NCBI GenBank assembly: GCA_036172245.1
Contig: JAYWIR010000002.1
Span: 1,302,001-1,366,000, forward strand
Length of the DNA: 64,000 nucleotides
From: Raillietiella orientalis
Lineage: Eukaryota
Reading direction: 5' to 3'
In this document: piece after piece, positions 13,526 to 62,396 of the stretch
Position numbering within the stretch: the first letter of the stretch is position 1
How the letters are laid out: every line of letters starts with the position of its first letter
The notes under the pieces: model-generated
Told to the model about the DNA's origin: nothing
Database searches by the model: none
The model's input: the letters and a program-made list of their open reading frames with translations, nothing else
Made by a program: the position numbers and the translations under genes

Positions 13526-13649
13526 CGGGCGGTTTCCAAGGGACGGAGGACGGCGCTGCAGAGTAAGGAGATGAGGTCCACGGTCCAGAGGAACTTCCCA
13601 GCCGCGGTCATGACCTGCGAGCATCACAACAGGCTGTCGTCAGGTAGCG
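13526..13649 (+). repeat. Dispersed ~125-bp repeat, copy 1
   Basis: Aligns by eye to 19195-19320 with 11 substitutions and one 2-nt indel (core ggcgctgcagagtaaggagatgaggtcc..ggtccagagg.acttcccagccgcggtcat). Confidence 0.9.
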
Positions 13650-17836: not shown

Positions 17837-20800
17837 TCACCCGCATGCTTTCTGGAAACACACCGAGGCAGACGGGAGACTGTATGCAGGTCTTCGTACG
17901 TAGTGGGAAAGGTACTGGAACGCGTTTTCTTCCGACAGCTCCCCGCTGATGACCTTCAAGATGGGCGCGTAGAACCTTTGCAGGATCATGGAGGCTTTGC
18001 TTTTCATCTTCAGCTTCCCCTCAAGCTGTATCGCACGGAGGCACCGCCTCCTCGCCTTGGACTTGTCCCAGCGCTTACCTCACTCACATTGATGACCCGG
18101 TTGCCTTCTCTGTTTTCGAACGTGCTTTCCCTCTCGGTGGCTTTCTCGCAGAATCGGCTGGTCAGAAGGTCTACGATCCCTGTGGCTGTTCTCTCGAAGG
18201 ACTCCTTGATCGAAATGTCGATGTACAGCACGCTGAAATGGTAAAATAAATTATCAGCCCAAGAAAGGAGGAGGGAAGAAAACGGTCGTCAGATTCATGG
18301 GATCAGCATTTCGAATCATTCGAGAGAAAGCCTCTTCCCGTTCCTCTTTCTGTGTCCCCCCGTTTTGCTTTCCCATCCTTCTCACTCACCCGCTGGCCTT
18401 TACTTGGTCCCCCAGTGCGGAAGGGAAGTCGCGCGCTTTCGTAGAAGCAAAGTCAGTCTTCCCCTTCCTTCAGCGGCAGTTGAAGGAAGGGGAAGGATAG
18501 GGGGGAACTGATGACGATGGAAGACACACGTGGCGATAGAGAGGCAAGGACGAAATCGATCCATTCTGTGTCCGTTTCGAGCCAATAACCAGGGGGAAAG
18601 AGACGTGACCAGGATGGAGTCTGCCGAGGAGCATGAAAAGCACTCAAAGCTACCGTTGCGAGGAAGCATTTACCAGCCAGAGCTCCGCTTTTCCCCATCC
18701 AATCTTTCTTCCCGGACCACGTAACCGAGCAGCACACGACGCGTGCGCGTGCCAGATCCGCTTTTGTGGTTAGCTGGGTGTGACTCACCAGCTTTAGAAA
18801 GGAAAGCCGTAAATCATCTCCTAGCATCAACACGCGCAAAGGGACTGAATCTACAAGGAGTGCTCTTCCTGGGGAGAGGGTCGATCTCCAGGCAGCGGGA
18901 AAGGAGGCTCGATGTCGTCGTCGCATCGGAAGGAAGGGAGGAAGCATCCAGCATTCTGAGGAAGCCCCCAGTGACCATCAGAGAACTACGCCCGTTGAGC
19001 ACATCCGACTTTCGTGGTTAGATCCGCAGTGTTCAGGTGGTCACCAGGAAACGCGGTAGTTGCGTGGCAACGACGAAATGCACCGACAAAGGGCGACGTG
19101 ACTGCCCCGCGGCAGCGCACACTATTAGCTATCGCTGTCGCCGCATCACGTTCGAGAACCATAGCCATGCCGTCTCAGCAAAAAGCATGGCAGCCGGGCG
19201 GTTTCCAAGAGACGGAGGAGGGCGCTGCAGAGTAAGGAGATGAGGTCCGCGGTCCAGAGGGACTTCCCAGCCGCGGTCATTCCCCGTGAGCACCACACAA
19301 CAGGCTGTCATCAGGCAGCGGCTCTCTCCGACTGGAGCTTCTGCACCAGCTCAAGTAGTTGAAGGCAGCTAAAAGTTGCTCGTATGTCCCGGAGGGGGGC
19401 AGGAGGGAGGGAATGGTCCGTCACGTCAACACTCCGAGGGAAGTTCGAAGAAATGGAAGCTGCGAGGCAGCAGGAAAAAAAGAAGAAAAAAAAGGAGTAT
19501 CGGTCCCGCAAAAAGCTACCGTGAGCGTATCTCCAGCGAGGGCAGTTGCAGGTTTTAGAAAACGGCCTCACAGGTAGAATGGGATCCGAGAGCGAAGTGG
19601 AGGAGATGAAATCTGCACGCGGAGAGGAAGAGGACGGGATTCCTATTGGGAAGGTGGCAGATGCATTTCTTTCCCGACGACCCATAAGGGAAGCGGTTTC
19701 TACGGGAACATCTTGCCCAAGACGGCAGTGAGGATATTCTCCTGACTTAGTTATTCGGCGGTGACATCCGTGCGTGGACGGTTGCTTGGCACTTCGATGC
19801 TCCGGGCAATGGGCTTAGGATCTGACCATCCGAAAGGAAGGAGGTCTTCCGACCCAGAGATAAAGGGGAGAAAAACTCCCTTTTTACGCTACAGCCACCG
19901 TTCCCGCTTCACGCTGGCCTCCCTGAACGGCATATGGTCGCGCTTTCTCTTTGAGCGCGCCACACCGCTCCTTTCCTCGTGAATCGGCCACCACCACCGC
20001 CGAGCGAAGACTTCCTGTCGGGATGAGCAGAGCTCTGAGCGCAGTTCTTCCTGAACTGTGAGTGCGCTCTGCACCCTCCTTGTGAAGGAATAACTCGAAT
20101 GCCACGCCCAGACAGAGGGGCCGGCAGAACGCCTCCCGCCCCCCTCCTGCCACTTGGCACTTGCGAACATTGGGAGACTGATCCCTATGCTCCGTAGGGT
20201 GGTGGTCGCTAAGAAGCCACAGCGGGTAGCGGAAGGCCGACTCGGTGATGGAGCCCTCCGCATTCGGAAAGCGAACCTCACCCCTCCCTTGCCCTGTTGC
20301 CTCGTTTCGGGGCGTGTTCGCAGCTCAGCCAGTCGTGGTGCGCATCGCGCGCATGGGAACGCATCGAGTCGGACCGATCATCAGCCGCGTACGCGTATAC
20401 CGAAAGAACCGACGAAATGACGCACGGAGTTTTTCGGCGGTTCTTCTTGAGCCGGCATCACTTTCGACGAGATGGTCTGAACAGCGAGATTTCCCGTGCG
20501 TCCGTCCACCACGCGCACCGGCGAAGATCTGATGCCTTCGACGGATTTCTGCTGGGACTACCAGACTCTCCGGATGCGATGCTATCCTTGGGACGCAGCT
20601 GATGCCTCCCCGCTGCCAGCTGCGTTTGTTTGCTCTTTGTTCACTGTGGACAAGAACGCAACGCGGATCCGAACGATTGCGGGGAAGCTCGCGGCAGCCT
20701 TGCCTGCCGTCTGCCATCGCAGGTGAGAGGCAGGCGAGAGATACTTCTCCATCTGCATCTCAAGGAGGAAGCGATTCAACCGAAGAGGGGGAGGGGGCGA

Positions 20801-31281: not shown

Positions 31282-31338
<57 letters not shown>

Positions 31339-34300
31339 TCACACGCACGCACGCAAGCACAAAGGAAGGAAAAAAAAACACACACAAGATCTGCAGATGG
31401 GATCGAGAGAGCTTGATTTGGAAGTCTTTCTGAATAAATTTTCCGAACGCAGGAATCATTTCAATCCTCGAGCTTCTCGGTTCAAAAGAGAAAAAGGTAA
31501 AAAACAACAACATCGCGGGATGGGGAGGTCTCTAATGTTCCAATCACTAAAAAATTCGGATCCAGATGTTTCTGAAAGGGTCTCGAAAACTTTCTCGGTG
31601 GATCTGTCCTCTCCGTACGATTTTCATGCAAGCCAGGCGTGGCAGACGCAAGATTCGAGTATCTTCCTGCCACTCGTAACGAATGCTCGCGAAGAACGTG
31701 CAGTTTCGTCATGAATCCGTTGCTCGCCGAGCGTGGAAATCATTATATCCGCGCGCGAAGCAATAGCCGAAAGAGATCCGTCTGGAGCGTCGCAAATGAG
31801 GCTGCTCCTGCAAAGCAAGTCTTCCCCGAAAGAACTGTCTCTATGGTTGCGCTAGGGCGGGGTGGTCTACAACACAGAGGACCCGCTACCGGTTGCCGTT
31901 CCTATCCTGTGACGCGAGGATCTTTTTTTTCTTTTTTTTTTTCTCTAGGGACCAAAAGGATGCTGTCGTGATCGTGCGAAGCGATGCCACTCCGAAGGCG
32001 CGAGATCGAAGGAAGTTGATGGTCGAATTCTGAAACGACTCCCTCAGAATGAGATCGCGTAAAGACTCCAGGAGGCTTTCAGATTTTCAGATCTGTTACT
32101 TCTGCAGTGTGCTACACATCTTTGATAAAATCTCTGGTAATCATCGTCTCTTCACCCCTGAATCGCCTCCGTCCGTTCTTCTTTTTTTGGAATTGCTACT
32201 TCCAGATTCAGCATCTTCAGCATCTTTCCGGGATCGACTGGGACACAGTCGAAGGGTTTTGTCTCCCCATGGTGATTGTTGTCTATGTTGTGGTGGCATG
32301 GTTCTTTCGGTGAGGTGGAGCTGAGGCATCTCATCTAAGGCAAGCCTCCCTACCAAAGATTGTTGTCTGGGTATCGCCCTCAAACCTCTACCAGAGAGGT
32401 CGAAGAACGCTTTTATTGGTCGCCAGCATGGATCCGTTTTCGCTGGTGCCCGATTTTTTCGTTCCAAATCAGATTCGGCTTCAGGCTTCTTCTTCGCAGC
32501 ATCGTCTCTCTTCATCAACTCCCCTTCTCCCTCCTTGACTCTCTCTCCCTCCCTCCTTTGCCGTTCCCCCTTCAGCACGAATGTTCTTCCTTCACCCCTA
32601 CCTCCCTTTCCTGAATCTCTCTCTCTCTCTCTCTTTTTCTTGCAAACAACCTCCGACGAAATTTCCATTATCCCGTTCATCACGGCAGGAGAGCACGTGA
32701 TTTTGAATGCGCGGCGATCTTCCTGTTCCCATAGGAATCAGCCTCCCTTAACACCTCCTTGATGGTCTGCAATGGCTCCTTGCCTGCTGCACCAAAAAAT
32801 CTCTTCCGTGCCCGCTCTCCGCGCGCACACGATCGTAATCCATTCTTCCGTGGCTGCTGTCGCAATGGAGTTTTCCCATAGTGGTAATTTCCCCGTTGCC
32901 AACGCCGTCGCGGTTTCCCCACCCAGCCCAGCGCATGGGATGTTCCTCGCTGTCGCAAGAGGAAGATTCGAAACGTCCCGTTCCCTCGAGGGAGGGAGCT
33001 CGATTCCACCTTGAGTCCCGAGTCGCGGGCCAGACACTGCATTTTCCTCTCGGTGCGGGGTTCTCGCGCTCGCCGATGCGTCTCCCTTTCGGGAATGCGT
33101 GACGCGCCACTTGCCCGATGGACTCTTTTTTCTTCGACGGCTGGCGGACCGAAACCATCCAGCATCCAAATCCTAGTCTCAGTCCCGAGCGCACGGTCTC
33201 CCTCCTCAAGAACTACCTTCGTGCTTCTGCAAGTATGCAGAGCTTCTCAAATCTTCATCGAATTTTTCGCCTCCCGCCCCCCACCGTTTGCGTGAACGTG
33301 GAACTCTAAAGTTTTTCGGCCTCAGCACTTGAACCTTTCCGCAGACTCCACTGCATTTTCCATCGGCACTTCCATGGATCGACCAAAAGATACGTGCTAA
33401 AAGTACGTATCTTCCCCTGCCGTTTGTCCCGCCACCCCTCCTCCTCGATCACAAGCTTCCCGTGCTTCTGGGATTTAAGGAGCTCATAAGGGTATGCTGT
33501 GTTCCGTAAAAGCAGGGTCGAGGGAGTTTTCTGATGACGCAAGCGCGCACGACCCTATGGAGTCGCAGTGAACCACCCGCATAATTCCGAGTTTCTTTTC
33601 CCGCTCGGCCGAACCAGCCTGCCCTCTGCCGGCCCAACTCCACGCGGGCGAAGCGAAGGCGTAGCTGAAACAGGTTGCTCGCCAGAGGAGGGATAGCAAG
33701 GACTCCCCCTCGTTACCGAACGCTCCTGGCCCGAACCGAAATCCCAGAGGCCTTTGGCTGGTCGTTGCGGGGAAAGAGAGGCACACCGGACCGAAGAGTT
33801 GGCTTTCCGGAGAAGCATGCGCCGGATTGCACAAGAGACATTCCAGCATAACCCTTGGATGACATGAAAGAACACTGGAATGACGAAGCTCTCATATTGT
33901 AACTTTTAACATTAGCAATATGGTCTACTCTTTTTCAATCTGAGTGCAATTGCCTCTTCCCAAATGTCACCATTGTGTAATAACTTTTCTCTATTATACA
34001 TCAGCTCCTCTCTTGTTTCTGTCGCAAACTCAAAATTAGGGCCCTCAACAATTACATTGAGAAAGATCTTAGGTGATCACGTTCCTCAAAAAGGCTCCTT
34101 GGTTGCACCAGATAGACTGAGGTTTGACTTTAGTCACAACACCCAAGTTACCCAGGATCAGCTATTTTTGATAGAAGATATGATGAACTCTCTAAGTAGA
34201 GAAAATCTTTCCACGTCTACAAAAATTCAGAGCATGGATCAGGCAATAGATGAAGGAGCTATGGCGTCGTTTGGCGAAAAATACGGCGACCAAGTAAGAG

Positions 34301-37300
34301 TGGTAAGTACTGGAGGTTCAAAAGAGTTGTGTGGCGGCACTCATGTGGAGCAGGACACGGAATTCTGAAGACGGGTTGGCAAATCTGTGGTTATTACTGA
34401 CGTGTCCTTGAAAGAAACTGTCGTGGCATATCGATCGCCTCTGCTCCGCTAGGAGGCTTCTCCTTTCCCTCCCCCCTTACCCCCTCCTCGTTTGGATGCC
34501 AAGACGCCTGCGAAAGCGGGAAAGAAACGGTCAATTCTCAAGCAAATTCGCCGAAAATTCAAAGGTGAACGAAACGGGAGAGGAAGAGACCTCTGTAGCG
34601 AAGCACAGGGTTTCTCCTCGAAGGCGAAACCGATGAAAGGCATTTGTTCGTCTCGGATCCTGTGATAGACCATGACCAGTTGCGGTGCGGTTGTGAAGTA
34701 AACAGGAAGCACGGAATCGCGATCCCTCTTCCGGGCTCGGTGCCTCATTTACGATTCGCAGAATCCTAAATTGCAGATTTAAAATCAAGGGTTGGTTCCG
34801 TTTGACGGAAGAGGCCGTCCAGCAGGTATTTGGTGCGCTTTCTAGACATCGGACGCGAGTTCGTGACAAGAAGGAAGCGCACATGTTGGTGGCGACTTTG
34901 CAATCAGTTGCACCAGCGCAATATTTCACGACATGACTGACCAAACTGATGTCGAGAAAGAAATGCAAGACGCAGACTTAAAGCAGATGACTTCTCCTCC
35001 CTGCCCCCACCCACCCCCTTTTTTTTTTCTTCTTTGTGACTGAAACTTCGGAACTCTTTGGAAGTCTGGGATAACCGTGCTCGTACATCAAGGAAAGATG
35101 AAGTACTTGGTGATTTATTATTTCTCAGAGAGAAAAAAAAAAAAACGGGAACGAAAATCGATCAGAGCTTAAAAATCCTGATTGGGAAGAGGCTGGGGAT
35201 CCAGTTCAGGAAGGGAGGAGGGAGGATTTCCAGAGGGATTCCTTTTGCATCTAGAGGATTCGAGAAGACTTCGTTGTGGTGGTTCTTTTCAGCAGCCTTT
35301 TCAGACTCTGACAGAACTTATCGAAAAGTCTTGCGCTTTTCATGGAAAAGACTCTTCTTCCCATGGTTGGGGAAGAAAGTTTCCCTGCACAAAGCAAACG
35401 TGCGATGATGTCCATGCAAATGAGAGTCCGGCACTGTTCCCTTTCTTCTTTTGATGGTTCCGTTTGTAGAATGAAATATCCTTTCGATGGCTCACGCGGT
35501 CCATTAATTGTAAGAGAGAGAGAGAGAGCCGAAATCGTAAATTTTTCGATAAAAACCCTCCGTGTGGTAATAAAATGAACTCTTATCAGACATTTTTCTC
35601 TCTCCTCCGGTGCATATTCAATTCTCCAAGGATCCTCTCCATCAACTATTGCATTATGCCATAGAGGGATCCAACCCGATCCCGAGAACAAATCTCAGTT
35701 TTGAAAAGCTTGGATAAATTTGCTACATTAATCCCTCTTTTTCCTAAGAGCGTTTGTTGTCAGAAAAGGGAAAGATTTTTAGAGTTTTCATTTCTTTTTT
35801 TACGTTTGCTCTATAGACTGTCAGTTGAATCAGGATCTCCAATCTGTGGACTGAGCTAAGATAGAATGCATATATACATATATGTGTGTGTGTGTTCCCT
35901 GTAAATGCAAACAAGGAGGGATAATGCATTGCCTCGGACTGCATCCGTTCGCTAACACAGCTCACGAAAGATTCCGTTTCCGATGTCCCCAAATGATTCC
36001 CCCTTCTGTCGCAATCTCTGGCGACCACCATGCGCGCTCATGGATCTGTTTCAGATCTCGAAATGTAATGTTAAGCGCCATGCCTATACTGTCGACCGAC
36101 TGCTCGCCGAGCATGCTGCTCTTCGTCCCCGCACCTGCTAACTGCGGATCTCCGAAATCACTTGTCGGATCGCTGTTTACTCTGCGCGCCCTGGAGGGAA
36201 AATGAGGATGGCTTACCTTCCACAAGGTCGAACTCTGTAGCCAGACGAGCCGCGTGTTTTCGAAGCACCGAGTCGCAGATCCCTAGTAGCACAACCCTCA
36301 GCATCACTCGGCGATGGTAACGAGGGAATTGGCATATGAAGGCCATGGATTCGAAGTACATTTCTTTGAAGGGAAGGTTTCCAGGAAGAATCTAAAACAA
36401 CGGAGCTGCGGTCACCACTTCATTAGACGCAGCTTCAACGCAGCTCCTTTTCCGGACGAATGGTTTCGAAAGTCGCAGTGAAAGAAGCATGTTGTTTCAT
36501 GCAGCAGTCCTCCGCAAAGATTAGTATGCGGGCGCTGATAGCGTGCACACCACACCTTGCCATGAGGGCCTTCAGTAGGAAACAGACCACAACGAACAGA
36601 CTGTAGATGGCGACAAAAGAGAACTGATCCGTTGCTTGACCAAAGCACTTTCGAAGCTGGCTTGACGCTAGTTTCACGGGCGTCGTAGAAGATGCGAAAG
36701 CTGAACCTCCTCCAAAGCAAGGGTGGTGGTGGAATGAGAGAGAGGGAAGGGGGGGGGGGGGGGAACGTTGAAAAGTGGACGTAGAAAAGAAGAAGGAAAG
36801 AAGAGGATGTGTGTCACTTGGATCTTGGATAGATGGATTCCGCCAAGAACCACAGCATGCGATACAGGAGGAAAACTTGAAGAAAGTTGTTTCGCTTCGA
36901 AGAAGGCTGTTTGCGACGAAAATTGCAACGATCTCAAACGGCTGCTTTCGGCACGGTACGCTCCATGAATGAATGTGCAGAAATAGGGAAGCGTTCAGCG
37001 GGTTTTTAAAGTGCAGACAGCAACCTCCTGCTCGATGGTGGCGGCTCCACTATAATATCAGCCGATGACGTCCCCCTTCAGATCGAGCATGGCAAGGTGA
37101 CGCATTTCTGTTTCTTTGTGCAAAAGAGCTGGACTCGGAAACAGGCAGGAAATAAAATTTGCTTGTAAAATTCTCAGGAATGCTCTGCGTGCCGACATGC
37201 TGGACGGTGTTTCGCATTCGCTCAACATTCTCTCGGCAGTTTCTTTTCCTTGGAGAACTCCCAGGTCACCATTGGCGAAGGAAGAAGCAAGCTGAGCACA

Positions 37301-54849: not shown

Positions 54850-55747
54850 TCTCCTCTGAAGTTGCTCCATGCAACCACGATCCCGCGTAGGCGACACGGT
54901 GCTGCTAGGGATGTGGCCGGCGTGAGGAAGCACGTAGGAAGAGTACGTCGCGTAGGAAGACGTGCTTTACAACGTCTCTGGCGTTTCTGCCTGGGGTTCC
55001 AAGGGTCGCGGCAAAGAGTTCTCCAAGGGCCGGAAGACACCACAGTCCACTAGGAGGTGCGGGAGGGATTCCCACTCCCCGCACCTTGCACAGTTTGGCT
55101 CCACACACTCCGATGTTCAATGATGTCGGCGGGTGTTGCACGGTAGGCCTTAGTGCATCATCATTAATGCCGACCCCTGCCACTTCAAAGGAAGAGTGCG
55201 GGTGTTCATGAGCACCGGGGGGCCAATGCAGTTCTTCCTCCGGAATACCCAGTAGCATACCACAGCACAAAAGTCCACGAGGTCGAGCAATCGGGATCGC
55301 AGCGTCGGTGAGCTGGCCCGTCGTCCACTCGCTCAGTCCTTTTCTCCTTCCGGAGATTTCTACAGTAACCTCCCATCTAGCCGTAAGGCTGCAGGAATCG
55401 AAGGGAGGACAGCGTGGCGGCGAGGGAGGTTCTGCTTGCCCACGCACTCCTCACGGGATCCTCCAGGATCTCCTGGAGCGTGCAGCTGTTGCGCGCGTAC
55501 AGGAAACGTCTCACCTGTTCCGGATCCTCGCCCACGTGCGAACGGTTTCCTGCAACCAGGCACCACTGTTCGCGGTGTGGCAAGAGATCCATCCGTTTTT
55601 CCTGGCTAGAGTGGTCACCTGACGAAGGTGCAGTCCGCAGCCCTTTTTCGAGGAGCCAATGACGACTCAATCAGAAGGAAAAGGGAACTCCAAAACACGG
55701 AGTTTCGTGGTCATGTGAAAGATGTCCCCTTGAACCGGGGACATTTC
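54850..55747 (-). mobile_element. Degenerate L1/Tx1-clade non-LTR retrotransposon, 3' part of ORF2
   Basis: Minus-strand translation with stops and frameshifts: TRTLPLKWQGSALMMMH*GLPCNTRRHH*TSECVEPNCARCGEWESLPHLLVDC (CCHC at 55042-55092). This is the zf-RVT zinc-knuckle pattern of L1/Tx1 ORF2. Upstream, DIFHMTTKLRVL resembles the RT C-terminal KLxVLG motif. Boundaries are approximate. Confidence 0.7.
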
Positions 55748-56849: not shown

Positions 56850-57250
56850 CACAGATGCTTCCTAGAATGACTCTTCCCGTCTCCACGAAACTGCTCGCCG
56901 CGGTTTTCCGCGATGTCCGGCGCGAAACGCGGTCTACGGCCCTCTTCCTTTACCACAGGAAAACGTCGCAGGAAGACATCTTTCACGTGACCACGAAACT
57001 CCGTGTTTTGGCATTCCCTTTTCCTCCTGAGGACATTGGCACGCTCGAAATGTCCCTGGTTCAACTGCTGCCAGTTGAGGAATCGGCGAAGATCGAAGGA
57101 ACCGAAGACACGCGAAGCCGGCGGAGGGCCGTCCCCGGCTGCCAGTTCGTGGCCACCGGATCTCTGGAGCAGCACAAGCTCAGATGCGCCAAGGGCTCTA
57201 CCAGGACTTACGAGAGAGTTCCGAGCCAGCCGCGGCGTCTGCATCTGCGC
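56850..57250 (+). mobile_element. Degenerate L1/Tx1-type reverse-transcriptase C-terminal fragment in opposite orientation
   Basis: MTLPVST...RSTALFL...IFHVTTKLRVLAFPF...RRAV resembles the region after YADD through KSxxLFL / KLxVLGxxF of Tx1-like RT. It shares a ~55-bp segment with the minus-strand copy at 55671-55726. Confidence 0.55.
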
Positions 57251-60236
57251 CCGCTGAAGAATGCAGCGTCATCCATATCTGTCGATTCCTCCGCTGTGCC
57301 GCTTCCACACCGCGTGGAAGGAGATGGGCGCAGCTGATTGAAGCCACGTCTTGTCGTGTGTCGGCTGTGTTTGTTCTGTCCAGACTGCTGCCTCTGCGTT
57401 GCCATAAGGACGTCGCAAATCGCGCGATGAACGCGCATACACGAAGGAAAGGGGCCACCAGGCTGACGTGGAAAACCCGGATACATTCACCTCACAGATA
57501 CGGCAGTTCAGACCCTCCAGGATTCAGGAATTAGAGAGGCCAGAAAGATTTCTACTGTTTGCAGCCATTTATCTAGGGGAATGCCCGAATCCTCAGTGTA
57601 GCTCTAAAAGCTCCGAAAGTTGGCGCTTGCTGTCCACTTGGAAAATAAAAATAAAAAAAATGAGGGTGGGGAACTTCACAGAGTGGTAGTTTCCATGGAC
57701 ATCCTCGTCGATCGTTCGAACGAGTGTCATGTATCGCGATCCTTATTCGAGCAGAATTCTTGTCCACCCACGCCTTCGAGGACGAAATTCTAGAGCCGCG
57801 TCGAAGAACCCTTGGTGATCATGTGACCGGTTCTGGATTTGCAGGGGACTTCTGCGCCTACCCATCTCCCCACAAATACCCGCCTCGTTCGATCCGCGTT
57901 GCTTCCCCTTCAGAGCGAGTCTCCTTTCATGCTGCTTCCTCAAATTCCGAGTGTCTTCCAAGGTTTCCTCCCCTCCCTCCTTCCTCCCCAACTCGGATGG
58001 GCGGCAGCAGGGAATTTCCTCCGCTCAGCTCCTCTTCCAAGAGCGCGGCGACACTCCCCAACACTTTTGGCACGACCGTCATGACAAGGAGACGACTCCC
58101 GCGCCATCCTGCTCAGCTTCCGGATTTCAGAAAGACCTTCGCAGGGCATCCTCTAGACCCTCCGGAGGCCGACAAAAAACTCGAGTTTCGCGCCGAAGGG
58201 CTCTGACATCGAGCGGGCTCCCAAGAGGAACCGGAGGAAGGGCATCCGGCAGCACTTCCGACTCCCGACCACCACGAGCAACCTCCAGCCTCCCCGCTGC
58301 ACCCCGCAAGCGTTTCCAGGGAAAGCGCGACCAGACAGAAGCCAGCTTGCCCTTGGCGATCTTGTGTTCGTGGCGCTCGGCTGCTGCTCTAGGGGAGGGC
58401 GAGCAGAAAGGTCCGAGGAGCTCGGCGTGCACGCCAGCGGCATCATTTTCCTGAGCCAGCAGCTTCTTCGCCGCATCGCTCAGCAGGAGGAGGAAAGGTG
58501 CGCGCGTCCTGAAAACTGCGGCTACTCCCCCCCCTTCCAGCGCCGGGATCCCGCGCGCGTAGCTTTCCCCTAAATCCTCTCATCATCCTTGAGCTCGCGG
58601 CGATGATGACGGCGACGACGACGCTTGGCGAGATGACCCCTGCCGCAGGGCGCTTGCGGGAGAGGAGGTCCCCTGGAGAGAGCCACTTTGGAAAGCATTT
58701 TCAGAGAAAAGATCTTAAGGACAGACGGGAGCCAGAGTAAAAACTGGGGGCAGTGAGGGAGGGGAGAGGGGGACGTGCCGATGAAGATAAAGGGAACTTG
58801 GCGCCGCCGTCGGATCCGCTACGCTCCGAGGCGGGGCCTCAGACGCAGCACGGCCGGCTGGCCGAGTCGCCAGCTGCATTGCCATGGGACGGCCGCACAA
58901 GCACGTTCGGAAGTGCGCAAGGACAAGGAGGGAACGTGGAAAGGAGGAAAGGGGACAGGACAGGAGCCCTCCGCTCTTCTCAGGACCGGGTGGTGGCCTC
59001 AGACTCCTTGTGCTCGCATGCCACGTCCATCGCGAGGAACTTCAGACGTTGCGAGAACGTCGCTCGCCTCTTGCTGCAAGGACAAACAGAGGCGGACTAG
59101 CAGACAAGGACCCTCCTCCAATGGGTACTGCTACCTCTTCCGGAGGGAAGACGCCTCCGGGTAGCGAAAAGGGGGAAAAGGCGGTGGACGCCCTCATCCT
59201 GCCTCGTCTTCCTCCTGCTTCGATCGTTTCTCGTCGACCTCCGTTCCGGTCGTAGCAGCAGGGAGCGCGGAGGTTGCCTCGTGCGCGGTCTCCGGCGGAG
59301 CGGGGAGGAGGAGGCAGGAGCCGCGTGCACGCTCTTGTGGTCACGGTTGCTGCCAACATCGGCAGTGCTCCTCTCGAAGACTGGACTCCTGCTGGGGGTC
59401 CAGAGGCAGGGGGGACGAGCTATGGCGGCGGCAGAGAGTTCCTCTTGTAGAGGTGGCGAGCGAGCTCTCATCAGAACTCCTCCGATTGTCGGGGAGATCA
59501 CTCGCAGAAAAGGCTTGCCGCGGAAACCATGGTTACGGAAGGGAGGACGGCTCGAAAGGAAAAAAGAAACGGAAAAACAATAGAAAATTTTCAAGAGGAT
59601 TATCGACCGACTGCCGGCTTTTCTCCGTGGGAAGCCCGCGGAGCTGCCGTGAGCACGAGAGAACTTGGAACTACCGTCCTGGAAAGAGCACGGTCCGGAA
59701 GATGTTCCCGCGGGAGCAGAGCCCGTGAAGAGGCCGAAATTGAAAGGGAGGGCGCCCCTGGAGCTTCTCTCAGCGTCCCGTTCCTTTCGGGAAGATCCGC
59801 GGGCCATGAGCCTCCGGAACTGAGGTACAGGAAGACGCCCGGAGCGACACGCGTTCCCTGGCAACGGCGCGGAGGCTCGCGCGCCGTTGCCAGGAAAGAA
59901 CTCTCGCGCAACGAGGCTCCCGCTGCAGCCTGACGGCCGACAGGCTCGCTGGTCTCCGTGAGCCAACGCAACCTCTGCGAGCGCGCGTGGGATCCCCTGA
60001 AGGGAACGGGCGCCGCCGCCGCAAGCGGCGGTGCGATTGCAGTGCAAGCTGAAGGGTGCTTGCCCAACTCCTTCGCATCCTTTCTCCCTCCCTCCCTCCC
60101 TCATGACGCGCGAACTCCAGAACGACGAACCGGCCGTGCGTTGGATTCGGGGACATCTCACACTTCTTCGCTCCCCCTCCCCCCCTCTCGCTCTCCTGGC
60201 GCTCCCGAAAACTTGTTCCTTCTTTCAGATCCCAGA

Positions 60237-62396
60237 ATGGATTACGTTCCCTACTTCGGGGACCTCATCCCCTTTTTTAGCACGTTCAGTTTCTACCTCG
60301 GCGGTCCGAATCAAGCGAACCTGCTGTTCACGACCGCGCTGCTCGTCGGATCGCTGTACTACTGCATGGCATACGCTCTTCAGGAGAAGCTGGTTGCCTC
60401 CGAGCGGCTGGTCATGAACAAGCAGGCCCTAGCATACCCCTACGACATAGACTGCGTCGTTTCCCGCATGCACGGCCTAGCCATGGACAATAACTTCTTC
60501 ACCTACCTCTACAACTCTTGCAAGATCATTCCCCAGATCATTCTGGTGAGGGGTCAGTCGGAAGTGACCCAGGGGGGGACGAGACCCGCTCTGGGGATCA
60601 TCAACGGGGACACCATGAGCTGGACCACGTACTCCGAGTGCCAGAACGAGATCCAGCAGATCGCCTCGGGTATGCGTGCACAGAAGCTCGTCTCGAAGGT
60701 GTCCAGGAAGGTCAGACCCGAGTGCGTTGGAGTGTGCGCTCCCCGGGGACCCGAACACACCATCATAGAGCACTCCATCATCCTCCTAGGAGGCGTGTAC
60801 GTCCCGGTTCACAACCACTACGGCAACGACACCATGATGGACATCATCCGGAGGACACGCATGCGGACGCTGTTCATTGGCGACGTAGAGAAGGGGAAGG
60901 TCATTATCGAGAGGCGCCCGCTGACCCTGAAGCACTTGGTTGCCTTCGAGTCCGTGGGCATGGTGCTGAAGACCAAGGCCAACCTCAAGGGGCTCAGCTA
61001 CCACACGCTGTCCTCCCTGAAGAGGAAGGGTGGTCGCAAGCTGCTCGACCTGCACAAACAGATGTCATTGCTGCTGCCCAACAGGGTCGTGGCCTGCTTC
61101 TTCACCGTTAACCACAGCGAAAAGTCCCGAGGCGTTCTGTTGACTCACGAGAACCTGCTCTCCGCAGCCACTGCGGTCGCTGTGCACCTAGACCAGCTGT
61201 TTCTAAGCCCTGACGACGTCTACCTGGCCAACGTGGGCAGGCATCATGCGTATGAGATGCTCTGGAACCTCTGCGTGCTGATGCAGGGAGCAAAGCTGGT
61301 GTACGGCACAGGAGACATCCAGAGCGACCTCAGAGTGGCCCGCCCGTCGTTCCTGGTTACCCCCCCCTGGGTTGTGAACGAGGTGTACGACAACTTCGTC
61401 GATACCTACAACAGCATGGGGGCGTGCACTCGCATGTCCACGGACTGCGGCTTCACCAAGAAACTGTCCAGCATGGAGCGCAGTTCCATGATGCGCGGGA
61501 CCTTCATGGACATGAAGTTAGGCCGCCAGGTGCAGAAGGCATTCGGCGGCCGGGTCAGAATCGTGATCGTCAGCGGTGGACCGATCTTCAGGGACGTTGT
61601 CGTCTTCATGAGGGCGTGCCTGAACTGCTTCGTCCTGCAGAGCTACGGAGCTGCCGAGACCAGCGGAGTGGCTTGCATGACCGTTCCCGGAGACAACATG
61701 GTGGACCACGTCGGGCCACCCTTGCCGTGCAACCACATCAAGTTGATCCACCCGGAACTCTTCACGTACACGCAAGTCACCCCGCTGGAGCTGCTTCGAC
61801 GAGGGTCCTATGTGGGCGAGATCGGAATCCGCGGGACGAACGTGGCGAAGGAGTACATTGTGTGGAAGGACGACAAAGGGAGGTATAGCAAGGAGGAGAT
61901 GGTCCTGCTCGTGACGGACGGGCAAGACTTCTTCCGCACCAACGACCTCGGGCGCATCCTCAGTAATGGAGCCATACAGCTCGTCGGCAGGAAGAAGATC
62001 AACGAGAAGAACGCTTCAGGAGAGTGGATTTGCCCCGTCCACCTGGAGAAGATTCTCAGGGACCACGTCAAGGTGATCGAAGGCATCCACTTGCACGTGG
62101 ACAGATACCGCTTTTACACCATAGCGTTTGTTAATGCGAAAGAAAGTAACGCTCAGAGTGAACTGGTCTTGAACGAGATCTTGCAGTCCTGCGCTACCTC
62201 AGAGAAAGTCAGAGACCTGAAGAGCTACCAGGTTCCCCAAGCGGTTGTCATCGCTCGTTCCACGATCACAAAGGCAGACCACGCTGCGAGGGACGAAATT
62301 TTAGTGAAGGAACACGAGCACGACTTGGAAGAGACCAAGCAAATGTCCCCGACGGAGAACCAAGTCTTCGGAAGAGCTCTGCAAGACATGTTCTGA
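60237..62396 (+). CDS. Intronless long-chain fatty acyl-CoA synthetase (ACSL)-like protein, 719 aa, with degenerate adenylation motifs
   Basis: Long uninterrupted ORF with strong C/G third-position bias. The first ATG is at 60237 (track ORF starts at an upstream GTG). It has an N-terminal hydrophobic segment and ACSL landmarks: WTTYSE, GVLLTHENL, DDVYL, FGGRVRIVIVSGGPI, SYGAAETSG, HVGPPLPCNHIKL, GEIGIRGTNVAKEY, FRTNDLG...GAIQLVGRKK, GEWICPVHLE, LKSYQ. Confidence 0.92.
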   Translation: MDYVPYFGDLIPFFSTFSFYLGGPNQANLLFTTALLVGSLYYCMAYALQEKLVASERLVMNKQALAYPYDIDCVVSRMHGLAMDNNFFTYLYNSCKIIPQIILVRGQSEVTQGGTRPALGIINGDTMSWTTYSECQNEIQQIASGMRAQKLVSKVSRKVRPECVGVCAPRGPEHTIIEHSIILLGGVYVPVHNHYGNDTMMDIIRRTRMRTLFIGDVEKGKVIIERRPLTLKHLVAFESVGMVLKTKANLKGLSYHTLSSLKRKGGRKLLDLHKQMSLLLPNRVVACFFTVNHSEKSRGVLLTHENLLSAATAVAVHLDQLFLSPDDVYLANVGRHHAYEMLWNLCVLMQGAKLVYGTGDIQSDLRVARPSFLVTPPWVVNEVYDNFVDTYNSMGACTRMSTDCGFTKKLSSMERSSMMRGTFMDMKLGRQVQKAFGGRVRIVIVSGGPIFRDVVVFMRACLNCFVLQSYGAAETSGVACMTVPGDNMVDHVGPPLPCNHIKLIHPELFTYTQVTPLELLRRGSYVGEIGIRGTNVAKEYIVWKDDKGRYSKEEMVLLVTDGQDFFRTNDLGRILSNGAIQLVGRKKINEKNASGEWICPVHLEKILRDHVKVIEGIHLHVDRYRFYTIAFVNAKESNAQSELVLNEILQSCATSEKVRDLKSYQVPQAVVIARSTITKADHAARDEILVKEHEHDLEETKQMSPTENQVFGRALQDMF

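Follow-up and report, generated by a model that had tools for sequence, protein, structure and literature searches.

How did pieces of two bacterial housekeeping genes come to lie, joined to each other, inside a long eukaryotic contig? An earlier note on this locus had described an AT-rich patch made of two bacterial gene fragments in opposite orientation, each broken mid-gene, and had read it as a chimera of two separate Wolbachia loci captured in a host intron during break repair. We examined the patch within the window, that is, the whole 64,000-nucleotide stretch of DNA analysed.

Two Wolbachia gene fragments and their donor

The insert occupies positions 33854–34352 of the window (499 bp) and consists of two Wolbachia-derived pieces. 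Searches with blastn against Wolbachia loci placed its left limit at 33854, the internal junction at 34052–34060 and the right limit at 34351/34352; the limits first proposed, 33836–34352, were exact on the right and 18 nt too far outward on the left. A GC scan and profile matches confirmed the patch as originally described. Its GC content is 40.7% compared with 50.4% in the 2-kb flanks, with a low-GC island at 33850–34250 in which 100-nt windows fall to 0.32–0.43 GC against 0.48–0.67 nearby, and the two pieces lie head to head, each gene broken off mid-gene. Chance is ruled out by far for both nucleotide matches (alaS piece, E = 2e-107; nuoI piece, E = 5e-62).

The left piece carries the 3′ end of nuoI on the minus strand (33912–34057), comprising the last 48 codons and the native TAA stop (33912–33914), and is truncated on its 5′ side. 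It matched positions 115–161 of the 162 in the NCBIfam NuoI profile NF004539 (E = 6.5e-19; score 68 bits, family cut-off 225), was 82–88% identical in nucleotides to Wolbachia in locus alignments, and stops at the same codon as 31 Wolbachia homologues. The profile match sits in a minus-strand ORF of 54 aa (33912–34076); as the earlier note had remarked, the nuoI part is absent from the ORF track, because 54 aa falls below the usual 60-aa ORF cut-off. Next to the stop lie 58 nt of Wolbachia intergenic DNA from 3′ of nuoI (33854–33911, minus strand), and alignment to Wolbachia loci L115, L116, L118 and L122 starts at 33854. This leftmost stretch had been omitted in the earlier description. The outer 31 nt of the spacer (33854–33884) resemble a short repeat that some Wolbachia genomes carry at several sites: extra 31-nt matches to this motif, at 86–91%, were found in genomes G005, G015, G047, G048, G041, G038 and G032, and an exact search of 142 loci for the left-end 31-nt motif gave no matches.

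The right piece is an internal alaS fragment on the plus strand (34052–34352; 100 codons, in frame from 34054), truncated on both sides, with homology stopping at 34352. The plus-strand frame 34054–34365 matched positions 567–667 of the 847 in TIGR00344 (E = 3.9e-30; score 105 bits, family cut-off 457). The piece spans the region before and into the second additional domain, tRNA_SAD, of which 20 of 44 Pfam positions were matched, and it aligned without gaps to genome G013 at 88% nucleotide identity over 300 nt. Substitutions fall at near-universally conserved AlaRS residues: P11, M44, S48, S72 and T86 each occur in 0–1 of 79 Wolbachia-like and 0–1 of 118 other bacterial homologues (197 in total). 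No functional protein can be made from either fragment. The nuoI piece is not the full-length protein scoring at the family cut-off that a functional NuoI would be, and the alaS piece lacks the full length, with its catalytic, tRNA-binding, editing and C-terminal parts, and the family-level score of a functional AlaS.

The DNA at 33800–34400 matched 59 of 60 genomes of the genus Wolbachia, with identities of 73–88% for the alaS piece and 76–88% for the nuoI piece; among other Anaplasmataceae, used as a control, 29 of 38 genomes matched, with the alaS piece reaching 74% at most. The best 79 AlaRS proteins among 5.8 billion were 72–89% identical and the next match was at most 65%. Every genus-named protein among these best 79 was from Wolbachia, and three were from metagenome-assembled genomes labelled ‘Rickettsiales bacterium’. 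The five top NuoI proteins were 79–83% identical, the two named ones being from Wolbachia, followed by Ehrlichia and Anaplasma at 69–73%. Together with the intergenic extension, these nucleotide and protein matches uphold the Wolbachia origin proposed earlier. Best matches to mitochondrial or nuclear NDUFS8 and AARS, which the earlier note had named as the result that would speak against it, did not appear; Wolbachia proteins topped the searches, and the insert derives from within Wolbachia and not from organellar or host NDUFS8 or AARS.

The trees placed the insert within Wolbachia. In a tree of the concatenated pieces (444 nt), it fell inside a 12-row clade (support 94/92) on a terminal branch of 0.16, compared with a median of 0.031, and in an alaS-only tree it belonged to a starred 12-row set (96/88). 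These 444 nt gave no supergroup placement. Nor did a 100-residue protein tree with named Wolbachia, in which the insert lies outside both the starred Litomosoides/Wuchereria clade and the starred wVulC/Tribolium/Bemisia clade and has no set position among the rest. No genome exceeded 88% nucleotide identity to the insert, and no protein among the 5.8 billion exceeded 89%. Judged by these identities, the donor appears to be a Wolbachia lineage without a close sequenced genome, the nearest being only 88% identical in nucleotides.

The internal junction and the host surroundings

The nuoI and alaS pieces abut without filler, and their blastn matches overlap at 34052–34060. We aligned the junction three ways, using the window, the alaS locus L087 and the nuoI loci L118 and L115. 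At 34052–34057, where the window reads TTACAT, the two compared Wolbachia parents have one and the same hexamer, and the window departs from it at the third base. Extended through 34060, the parents agree at 8 of 9 nt. In all 39 genomes that carry both genes on one contig, alaS and nuoI are separated by 13.4 kb to 1.34 Mb (distances calculated by hand from match positions) and in none are they adjacent, which bears out the suggestion of two separate Wolbachia loci. The insert is thus a direct joining of non-contiguous donor fragments, as in mosaic end-joining insertions. Divergence is alike in the two pieces, with dS values of 0.50 and 0.60 and terminal branches of 0.15 and 0.13. Exact scans of metagenome contigs returned no matches to the left host–insert junction or to the internal junction.

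In the assembly, 33.8 kb of non-bacterial DNA lies on one side of the insert and 29.6 kb on the other, with a dinucleotide signature that differs from that of the insert; no ambiguous bases (N) occur in the flanks or anywhere in the 64-kb window. Comparison of positions 1–64000 with the five closest genomes found no further Wolbachia-like DNA. No direct or inverted repeats bracket 33854 and 34352, and neither a target-site duplication nor terminal repeats were found; the 6-nt microhomology at the internal junction and the lack of transposon hallmarks together match what defines a mosaic end-joining insertion.

The placement in a host intron was not supported: there is no exon-like signal within 8 kb of the insert, the nearest lying at about 25.5–25.8 kb on one side and at 60.2 kb on the other. 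One clear gene was found in the window (P0003), which is annotated as a eukaryote-like ACSL and scored 66.8 in an amino-acid coding scan. Its best match in a full HMMER search was 27% identical (E = 1.5e-65); the ten top matches looked up by name, scattered across eukaryotes (a nematode, an ichthyosporean, an oomycete, a spider and a chromerid), reached up to 30% identity, and a word-index search gave 13 matches at 20–27%. Pfam searches of single ORFs returned only AMP-binding and tRNA_SAD. An Rfam scan gave no matches, and no telomere-type repeats were found.

Selection and probable decay in the insert

Compared with the consensus of its nearest clade, the insert has 51 differences, 35 of them at third codon positions; the number of changed codons is 15 of 145. 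In neutral simulations the average was 34.8 changed codons, and none of 20,000 runs gave 15 or fewer. The dN/dS of the insert is 0.10, within the 0.02–0.15 seen for live Wolbachia genes. These values supersede our first-pass count of sites unlike every clade member, a count that leaves out variable synonymous sites and so gives too much weight to nonsynonymous ones. The third-position bias therefore suggests that most of the divergence arose in the living donor lineage.

Second-position changes made up 10 of 51 in the insert; in seven live Wolbachia from outside the clade the figure was 29 of 370 (Fisher p = 0.016, with rows that are not independent of each other). Changes private to the insert relative to all 31 Wolbachia were nonsynonymous-heavy (10:3 compared with a pooled 59:43), an excess that is not significant (p = 0.24). 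The substitutions thus show a mixture of purifying selection and relaxed constraint. The second-position excess and the five odd AlaRS residues point to neutral decay of a few percent, perhaps 2–5%, since the transfer; as the dN/dS lies inside the live range and the private excess is not significant, the case for decay rests on a handful of sites. Two compositional signals were set aside: amelioration of GC towards the host, the insert’s GC and GC3 both being inside the Wolbachia range, and an AT-to-GC lean among unique changes (16 to 8), which one live genome likewise shows (11 to 2).

The earlier note had stressed open frames with few damaging changes, and the native frames are indeed stop-free. 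Its dating of the event as fairly recent needs qualifying: the transfer seems neither fresh nor ancient, given 88% identity to the nearest genome that would be mostly donor-lineage divergence, with perhaps 2–5% decay after transfer.

Probable capture of the fragments and what the insert may record

On this evidence, the insert is probably a nuclear Wolbachia transfer (nuwt), an inert two-fragment fossil joined at microhomology and end-joined into a chromosomal break. Two short stretches of a single Wolbachia genome, originally far apart in it, would have been joined head to head at the 6-nt microhomology and ligated into the break by non-homologous or microhomology-mediated end joining (NHEJ or MMEJ). 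Capture was most likely a single germ-line event in a host that presumably then carried Wolbachia, and neutral drift may have altered the insert by a few percent afterwards. For the break-repair capture proposed in the earlier note, the junction microhomology fits end joining, and a double-strand break would be its presumed starting point.

The pieces of a real nuwt might instead have been captured separately, by successive insertions at one site, or be what deletion or rearrangement left of a larger insert. Large nuwts that fragment over time are described (PMC12693587), as are neighbouring nuwts of Brugia malayi that stem from separate regions of the Wolbachia genome (PMC3849323). This course of events is improbable here, as the pieces are equal in divergence and branch length and abut exactly at a microhomology without filler. 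Moreover, in G013 and G032, the nearest genomes that carry the two loci on a single contig with the same relative orientation, the loci stand in the opposite order to that of the insert; by our working by hand, a simple internal deletion therefore should not be able to yield the junction.

An artefact, in which reads from live Wolbachia in the sample or in another carrier organism were mis-joined into the host contig by an assembly or library error, is a touch more improbable. It would account for a divergence that is mostly what a live gene under selection would show (dN/dS 0.10; 35 of 51 changes at third positions), and microhomology joins are typical of laboratory, in-vitro chimeras too. 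However, a 499-bp mosaic of two loci flanked on both sides by some 30 kb or more of non-bacterial, N-free DNA would require three false joins, no further Wolbachia DNA turned up in the window against the five closest genomes, and the second-position excess and five AlaRS residues near-absent from 197 homologues do not suit a gene on which a living bacterium depends. Co-option, with the insert or an open frame in it serving as a host exon or regulatory element, is very unlikely indeed. A 150-codon frame (33916–34368) does stay open through antisense nuoI into alaS, with an ATG at codon 17, and both native frames lack stops, but frames also stay open in 17% of neutral simulations. Radical changes affect universally conserved AlaRS residues, just a truncated domain remains (20 of 44 tRNA_SAD positions), the pieces scored a weak 8.8 and 8.3 in the coding scan that gave 66.8 for the clear gene, and a GC3-periodicity scan listed nothing at the insert.

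As a nuwt, the insert is an ordinary mosaic of a well-known kind. Like the nuwts of Brugia malayi, most of which are 100–200 bp and mostly non-functional (Ioannidis et al. 2013, PMC3849323), it would consist of short Wolbachia gene fragments in a host chromosome; many of the Brugia nuwts, however, are near-identical to the resident wBm, recent and of known donor, whereas the nearest genome to the insert is 88% identical (PMC3849323). NUWTs average 434 bp in Onchocerca, and those of filarial nematodes, whether or not these carry live Wolbachia, are described as ‘genomic fossils’, neutrally evolving markers of past infection that are placed by phylogeny, some of them from supergroups other than that of the current infection (PMC12693587); Wolbachia genomic fossils are also described in Dictyocaulus viviparus (PMC4046930). 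The insert resembles these filarial and Dictyocaulus NUWTs as a small, probably neutral Wolbachia remnant, but the nematode hosts have many per genome and here there is one insert in one 64-kb window (PMC12693587, PMC4046930). Its construction recalls complex numts and nupts, non-contiguous donor fragments end-joined at double-strand breaks without target-site duplication, for which junction microhomology is the expected signature; their donor is an organelle, whereas that of the insert is a bacterial endosymbiont (PMC6215612, PMC2567098).

Most nuwts are inert and they occur commonly, which makes the insert unsurprising in itself; its value is that of a marker. The clean junction of two fragments at a microhomology offers a neat natural case of endosymbiont DNA captured by end joining. 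The insert also cautions curators against purging a short bacterial-looking patch from a long host contig as contamination before the reads have been checked. We consider it rather unlikely, if less so than the alternatives above, that the insert is the only record to date of a deep Wolbachia lineage that has yet to be sampled, in a GC-rich, gene-poor host outside the known Wolbachia range, left by past infection or by close association with an infected arthropod or nematode. Should the host prove to be no known carrier of Wolbachia, or to belong to neither the arthropods nor the nematodes, the recorded host range would be extended. As a marker, the insert would record that the germ line of the host’s ancestors was exposed to a Wolbachia without a close sequenced representative.

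Limits and gene content of the insert

Using blastn against fetched Wolbachia loci, we set the limits of the insert at 33854 on the left and 34351/34352 on the right, a total of 499 bp; the earlier note had the right end correct at 34352 but began the insert at 33836, 18 nt too far left. The nuoI and alaS matches within it overlap at 34052–34060. The window is GC-rich (0.42–0.65 per kb) and dips to 0.32–0.43 in 100-nt windows at about 33850–34350, with 40.7% GC in this island versus 50.4% in the 2-kb flanks.

On the minus strand lies an open frame of 54 codons (33912–34076), residues 7–53 of which match NCBIfam NF004539 (NuoI; model positions 115–161 of 162, E = 6.5e-19, 68 bits versus a full-protein cut-off of 225). 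A plus-strand stretch (34054–34365) matches TIGR00344 (alaS; model positions 567–667 of 847, E = 3.9e-30, 105 bits versus a cut-off of 457), and Pfam shows the beginning of a tRNA_SAD domain there. These partial matches on opposite strands bear out the earlier description of two housekeeping-gene fragments, each broken mid-gene. A stop-free frame of 150 codons (33916–34368, plus strand, ATG at codon 17) also runs from antisense nuoI into the alaS fragment; it is probably due to chance, and is a frame to check should transcripts turn up.

The two pieces meet at the sequence TTACAT (34052–34057). The corresponding hexamer is identical between the compared nuoI (on this strand) and alaS parents, the window deviating at its third base, and the parents are alike at 8 of 9 nt at the junction. 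Such likeness is a signature of microhomology-assisted end joining, to which mosaic organelle inserts made through end joining are a mechanistic parallel (PMC6215612, PMC2567098). We found no direct or inverted repeats bracketing the insert, and so nothing that points to carriage by a transposon. Outside the insert, 1–64000 gave no match to the five closest Wolbachia genomes. Its outer 31 nt (33854–33884, in the spacer downstream of nuoI) have 86–91% matches elsewhere in some Wolbachia genomes, with, for example, three extra places in genome G005 and two in G032, and have the look of a short repeat dispersed in the intergenic DNA of Wolbachia.

The two loci lie on one contig in 39 genomes and are adjacent in none of these, their distance, worked out by hand from the match places, running from 13.4 kb (genome G047) to 1.34 Mb. 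In G013 and G032, the nearest genomes with the relative orientation of the insert, locus order is reversed versus the insert, so the junction would not be expected from a longer insert that had simply lost an internal part. The two pieces are alike in dS (0.50 and 0.60) and in terminal branch (0.15 and 0.13), which fits one donor at one time.

Wolbachia origin and donor lineage

Nucleotide matches to 33800–34400 were present in 59 of 60 Wolbachia-genus genomes, with 73–88% identity for the alaS piece (best in G013, 88% over 300 nt without gaps) and 76–88% for the nuoI piece. In a family control of 98 Anaplasmataceae genomes, 29 of the 38 outside the genus matched; there, alaS identity reached at most 74%, and matches other than alaS were confined to short stretches of the nuoI end, which is highly conserved.

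A pattern-based first scan with the alaS fragment, covering one genome per prokaryote species, gave 579 confirmed relatives; the best three were Wolbachia (83, 81 and 69% amino acid identity), with the others among the 80 retained at 53–62%. A search of 5.8 billion proteins gave, as its 79 best full-length AlaRS, sequences with 72–89% identity to the fragment, every genus-named one being Wolbachia and three being ‘Rickettsiales bacterium’ MAGs; below these, identity drops to 65% or less. Thirteen nearly identical NCBI AlaRS of 866 amino acids (P0070–P0081 and P0087; 79–80% identity to the fragment) lie on contigs of ~15.5 kb; as a set, these short Wolbachia-like contigs are oddly redundant. 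The five best NuoI proteins have 79–83% identity, the two named ones being Wolbachia, and are followed by Ehrlichia and Anaplasma at 69–73%. The Wolbachia match also extends 58 nt beyond the nuoI stop into intergenic DNA. The best nucleotide and protein matches, together with this extension, uphold the Wolbachia source given in the earlier note over its alternative of mitochondrial or nuclear NDUFS8 and AARS; an NDUFS8 gene of either kind would not share the intergenic stretch.

For trees, loci were taken from the best 30 places per search plus three more, giving 31 genomes per piece, with both pieces present for 26 of 60 genomes. The concatenated DNA tree (444 nt) placed the insert in a 12-row clade (support 94/92) on a terminal branch of 0.16 versus a median of 0.031, and the same 12-row set was starred in the alaS-only tree (96/88). 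Neither the nuoI-only tree (144 nt) nor a tree of 100 protein residues that included named Wolbachia resolved the place of the insert; in the latter it lay outside the starred Litomosoides and Wuchereria clade and outside the starred wVulC, Tribolium and Bemisia clade, with the shortest path lengths to ‘group A’ strains and the Penenirmus auritus strain.

Against a consensus built from its 11 nearest genomes, the insert differs at 51 of 435 sites, 35 of these differences falling at third codon positions, and 15 of 145 codons are changed versus a neutral-simulation mean of 34.8 (15 or fewer in 0 of 20,000 runs). Its dN is 0.051 and its dS 0.53, a ratio of 0.10, compared with 0.02–0.15 in live Wolbachia. 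The third-position bias and the few changed codons indicate that most of the 12% gap to known genomes arose under purifying selection, and hence in a living bacterium of an uncollected lineage. The donor is predicted to be a Wolbachia lineage absent from collections.

Signs of decay and host setting

The insert also carries signs of relaxed constraint. Second-position differences make up 10 of 51, versus 29 of 370 across seven genomes of live Wolbachia from outside the clade (Fisher p = 0.016, with rows that are not independent). The AlaRS residues P11, M44, S48, S72 and T86 each occur in 0–1 of 79 Wolbachia-like and 0–1 of 118 other bacterial AlaRS, and among 31 Wolbachia the NuoI changes K23R and N44S occur in none and the Y48C residue only in G003, all three striking residues of little or no variation there. 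From about six surplus second-position changes, we estimate that neutral divergence since insertion may be 2–5%. Both frames stay open in 17% of fully neutral simulations, so the absence of stops fits this estimate, as does the absence of indels. The decay reading is weakened by the private changes of the insert against all 31 Wolbachia, whose N:S of 10:3 is not significantly different from the 59:43 of pooled live genomes (p = 0.24), and by a GC content inside the Wolbachia range.

Two independent coding scans (amino-acid composition versus local background, and three-base GC periodicity) found a sole strong gene in 64 kb, the AMP-binding, long-chain acyl-CoA-synthetase-like frame P0003 (about 60207–62393, plus strand; intronless, 717–729 codons, Pfam AMP-binding E = 2.9e-40). 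It has GC of 0.55/0.37/0.80 by codon position and an N-terminal hydrophobic segment; its best relatives have 27% identity at E = 1.5e-65, and the ten top matches checked by name, scattered over eukaryotes (nematode, ichthyosporean, oomycete, spider and chromerid), have up to 30%. Moving out from the insert, weak exon-like segments are first met at 25.5–25.8 kb to one side and at 60.2 kb to the other, so its proposed position in a host intron draws no support from these scans, which leave room for exons with weak codon bias. An Rfam search of the window gave no match.

Across 1–64000 the host DNA is unusual in its dinucleotides, CpG o/e being 0.92, TpA 0.45, and GA and TC 1.25, with 25 purine/pyrimidine tracts of at least 25 nt. 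Internal repeats are almost absent, there being only two pairs. One is a 126-nt direct repeat (13526–13649 and 19195–19320) whose copies are 90% identical and separated by 5.7 kb; the other is inverted and 56 nt long (55671–55726 and 56975–57030; 93%). A perfect (CA)20 microsatellite lies at 31286–31325. Such GC-rich, TpA-poor, repeat-poor DNA is unlike expectation for most arthropod or filarial genomes.

Probable integration and significance

That the insert is an assembly or library artefact, not present in the host chromosome, we consider very unlikely. Against it stand the make-up of the insert, a mosaic of two loci in 499 bp flanked by 33.8 and 29.6 kb of non-bacterial DNA free of N; the contrast between flanks (CpG o/e 0.92, TpA 0.45) and insert (0.48, 0.66); and substitutions that a live bacterium would not tolerate in an essential gene. 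When metagenome contigs were scanned for exact copies of the left host–insert junction and of the internal junction, each gave 0 matches. The intrinsic sequence evidence favours a real insert, which has the look of a genuine two-fragment nuclear Wolbachia transfer that is inert and has decayed by a few percent.

Wolbachia inserts that are short, fragmentary and non-functional are already well documented, and this insert is of the same kind. The majority of those in Brugia malayi are 100–200 bp (PMC3849323), and those of Onchocerca average 434 bp and are fossils of past infections, at times from supergroups now absent (PMC12693587); Dictyocaulus viviparus is likewise described as holding such fossils without live infection (PMC4046930). 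The present insert would matter more were its host to fall beyond the range of hosts known for Wolbachia, or were additional inserts to reveal a new, deep donor lineage.
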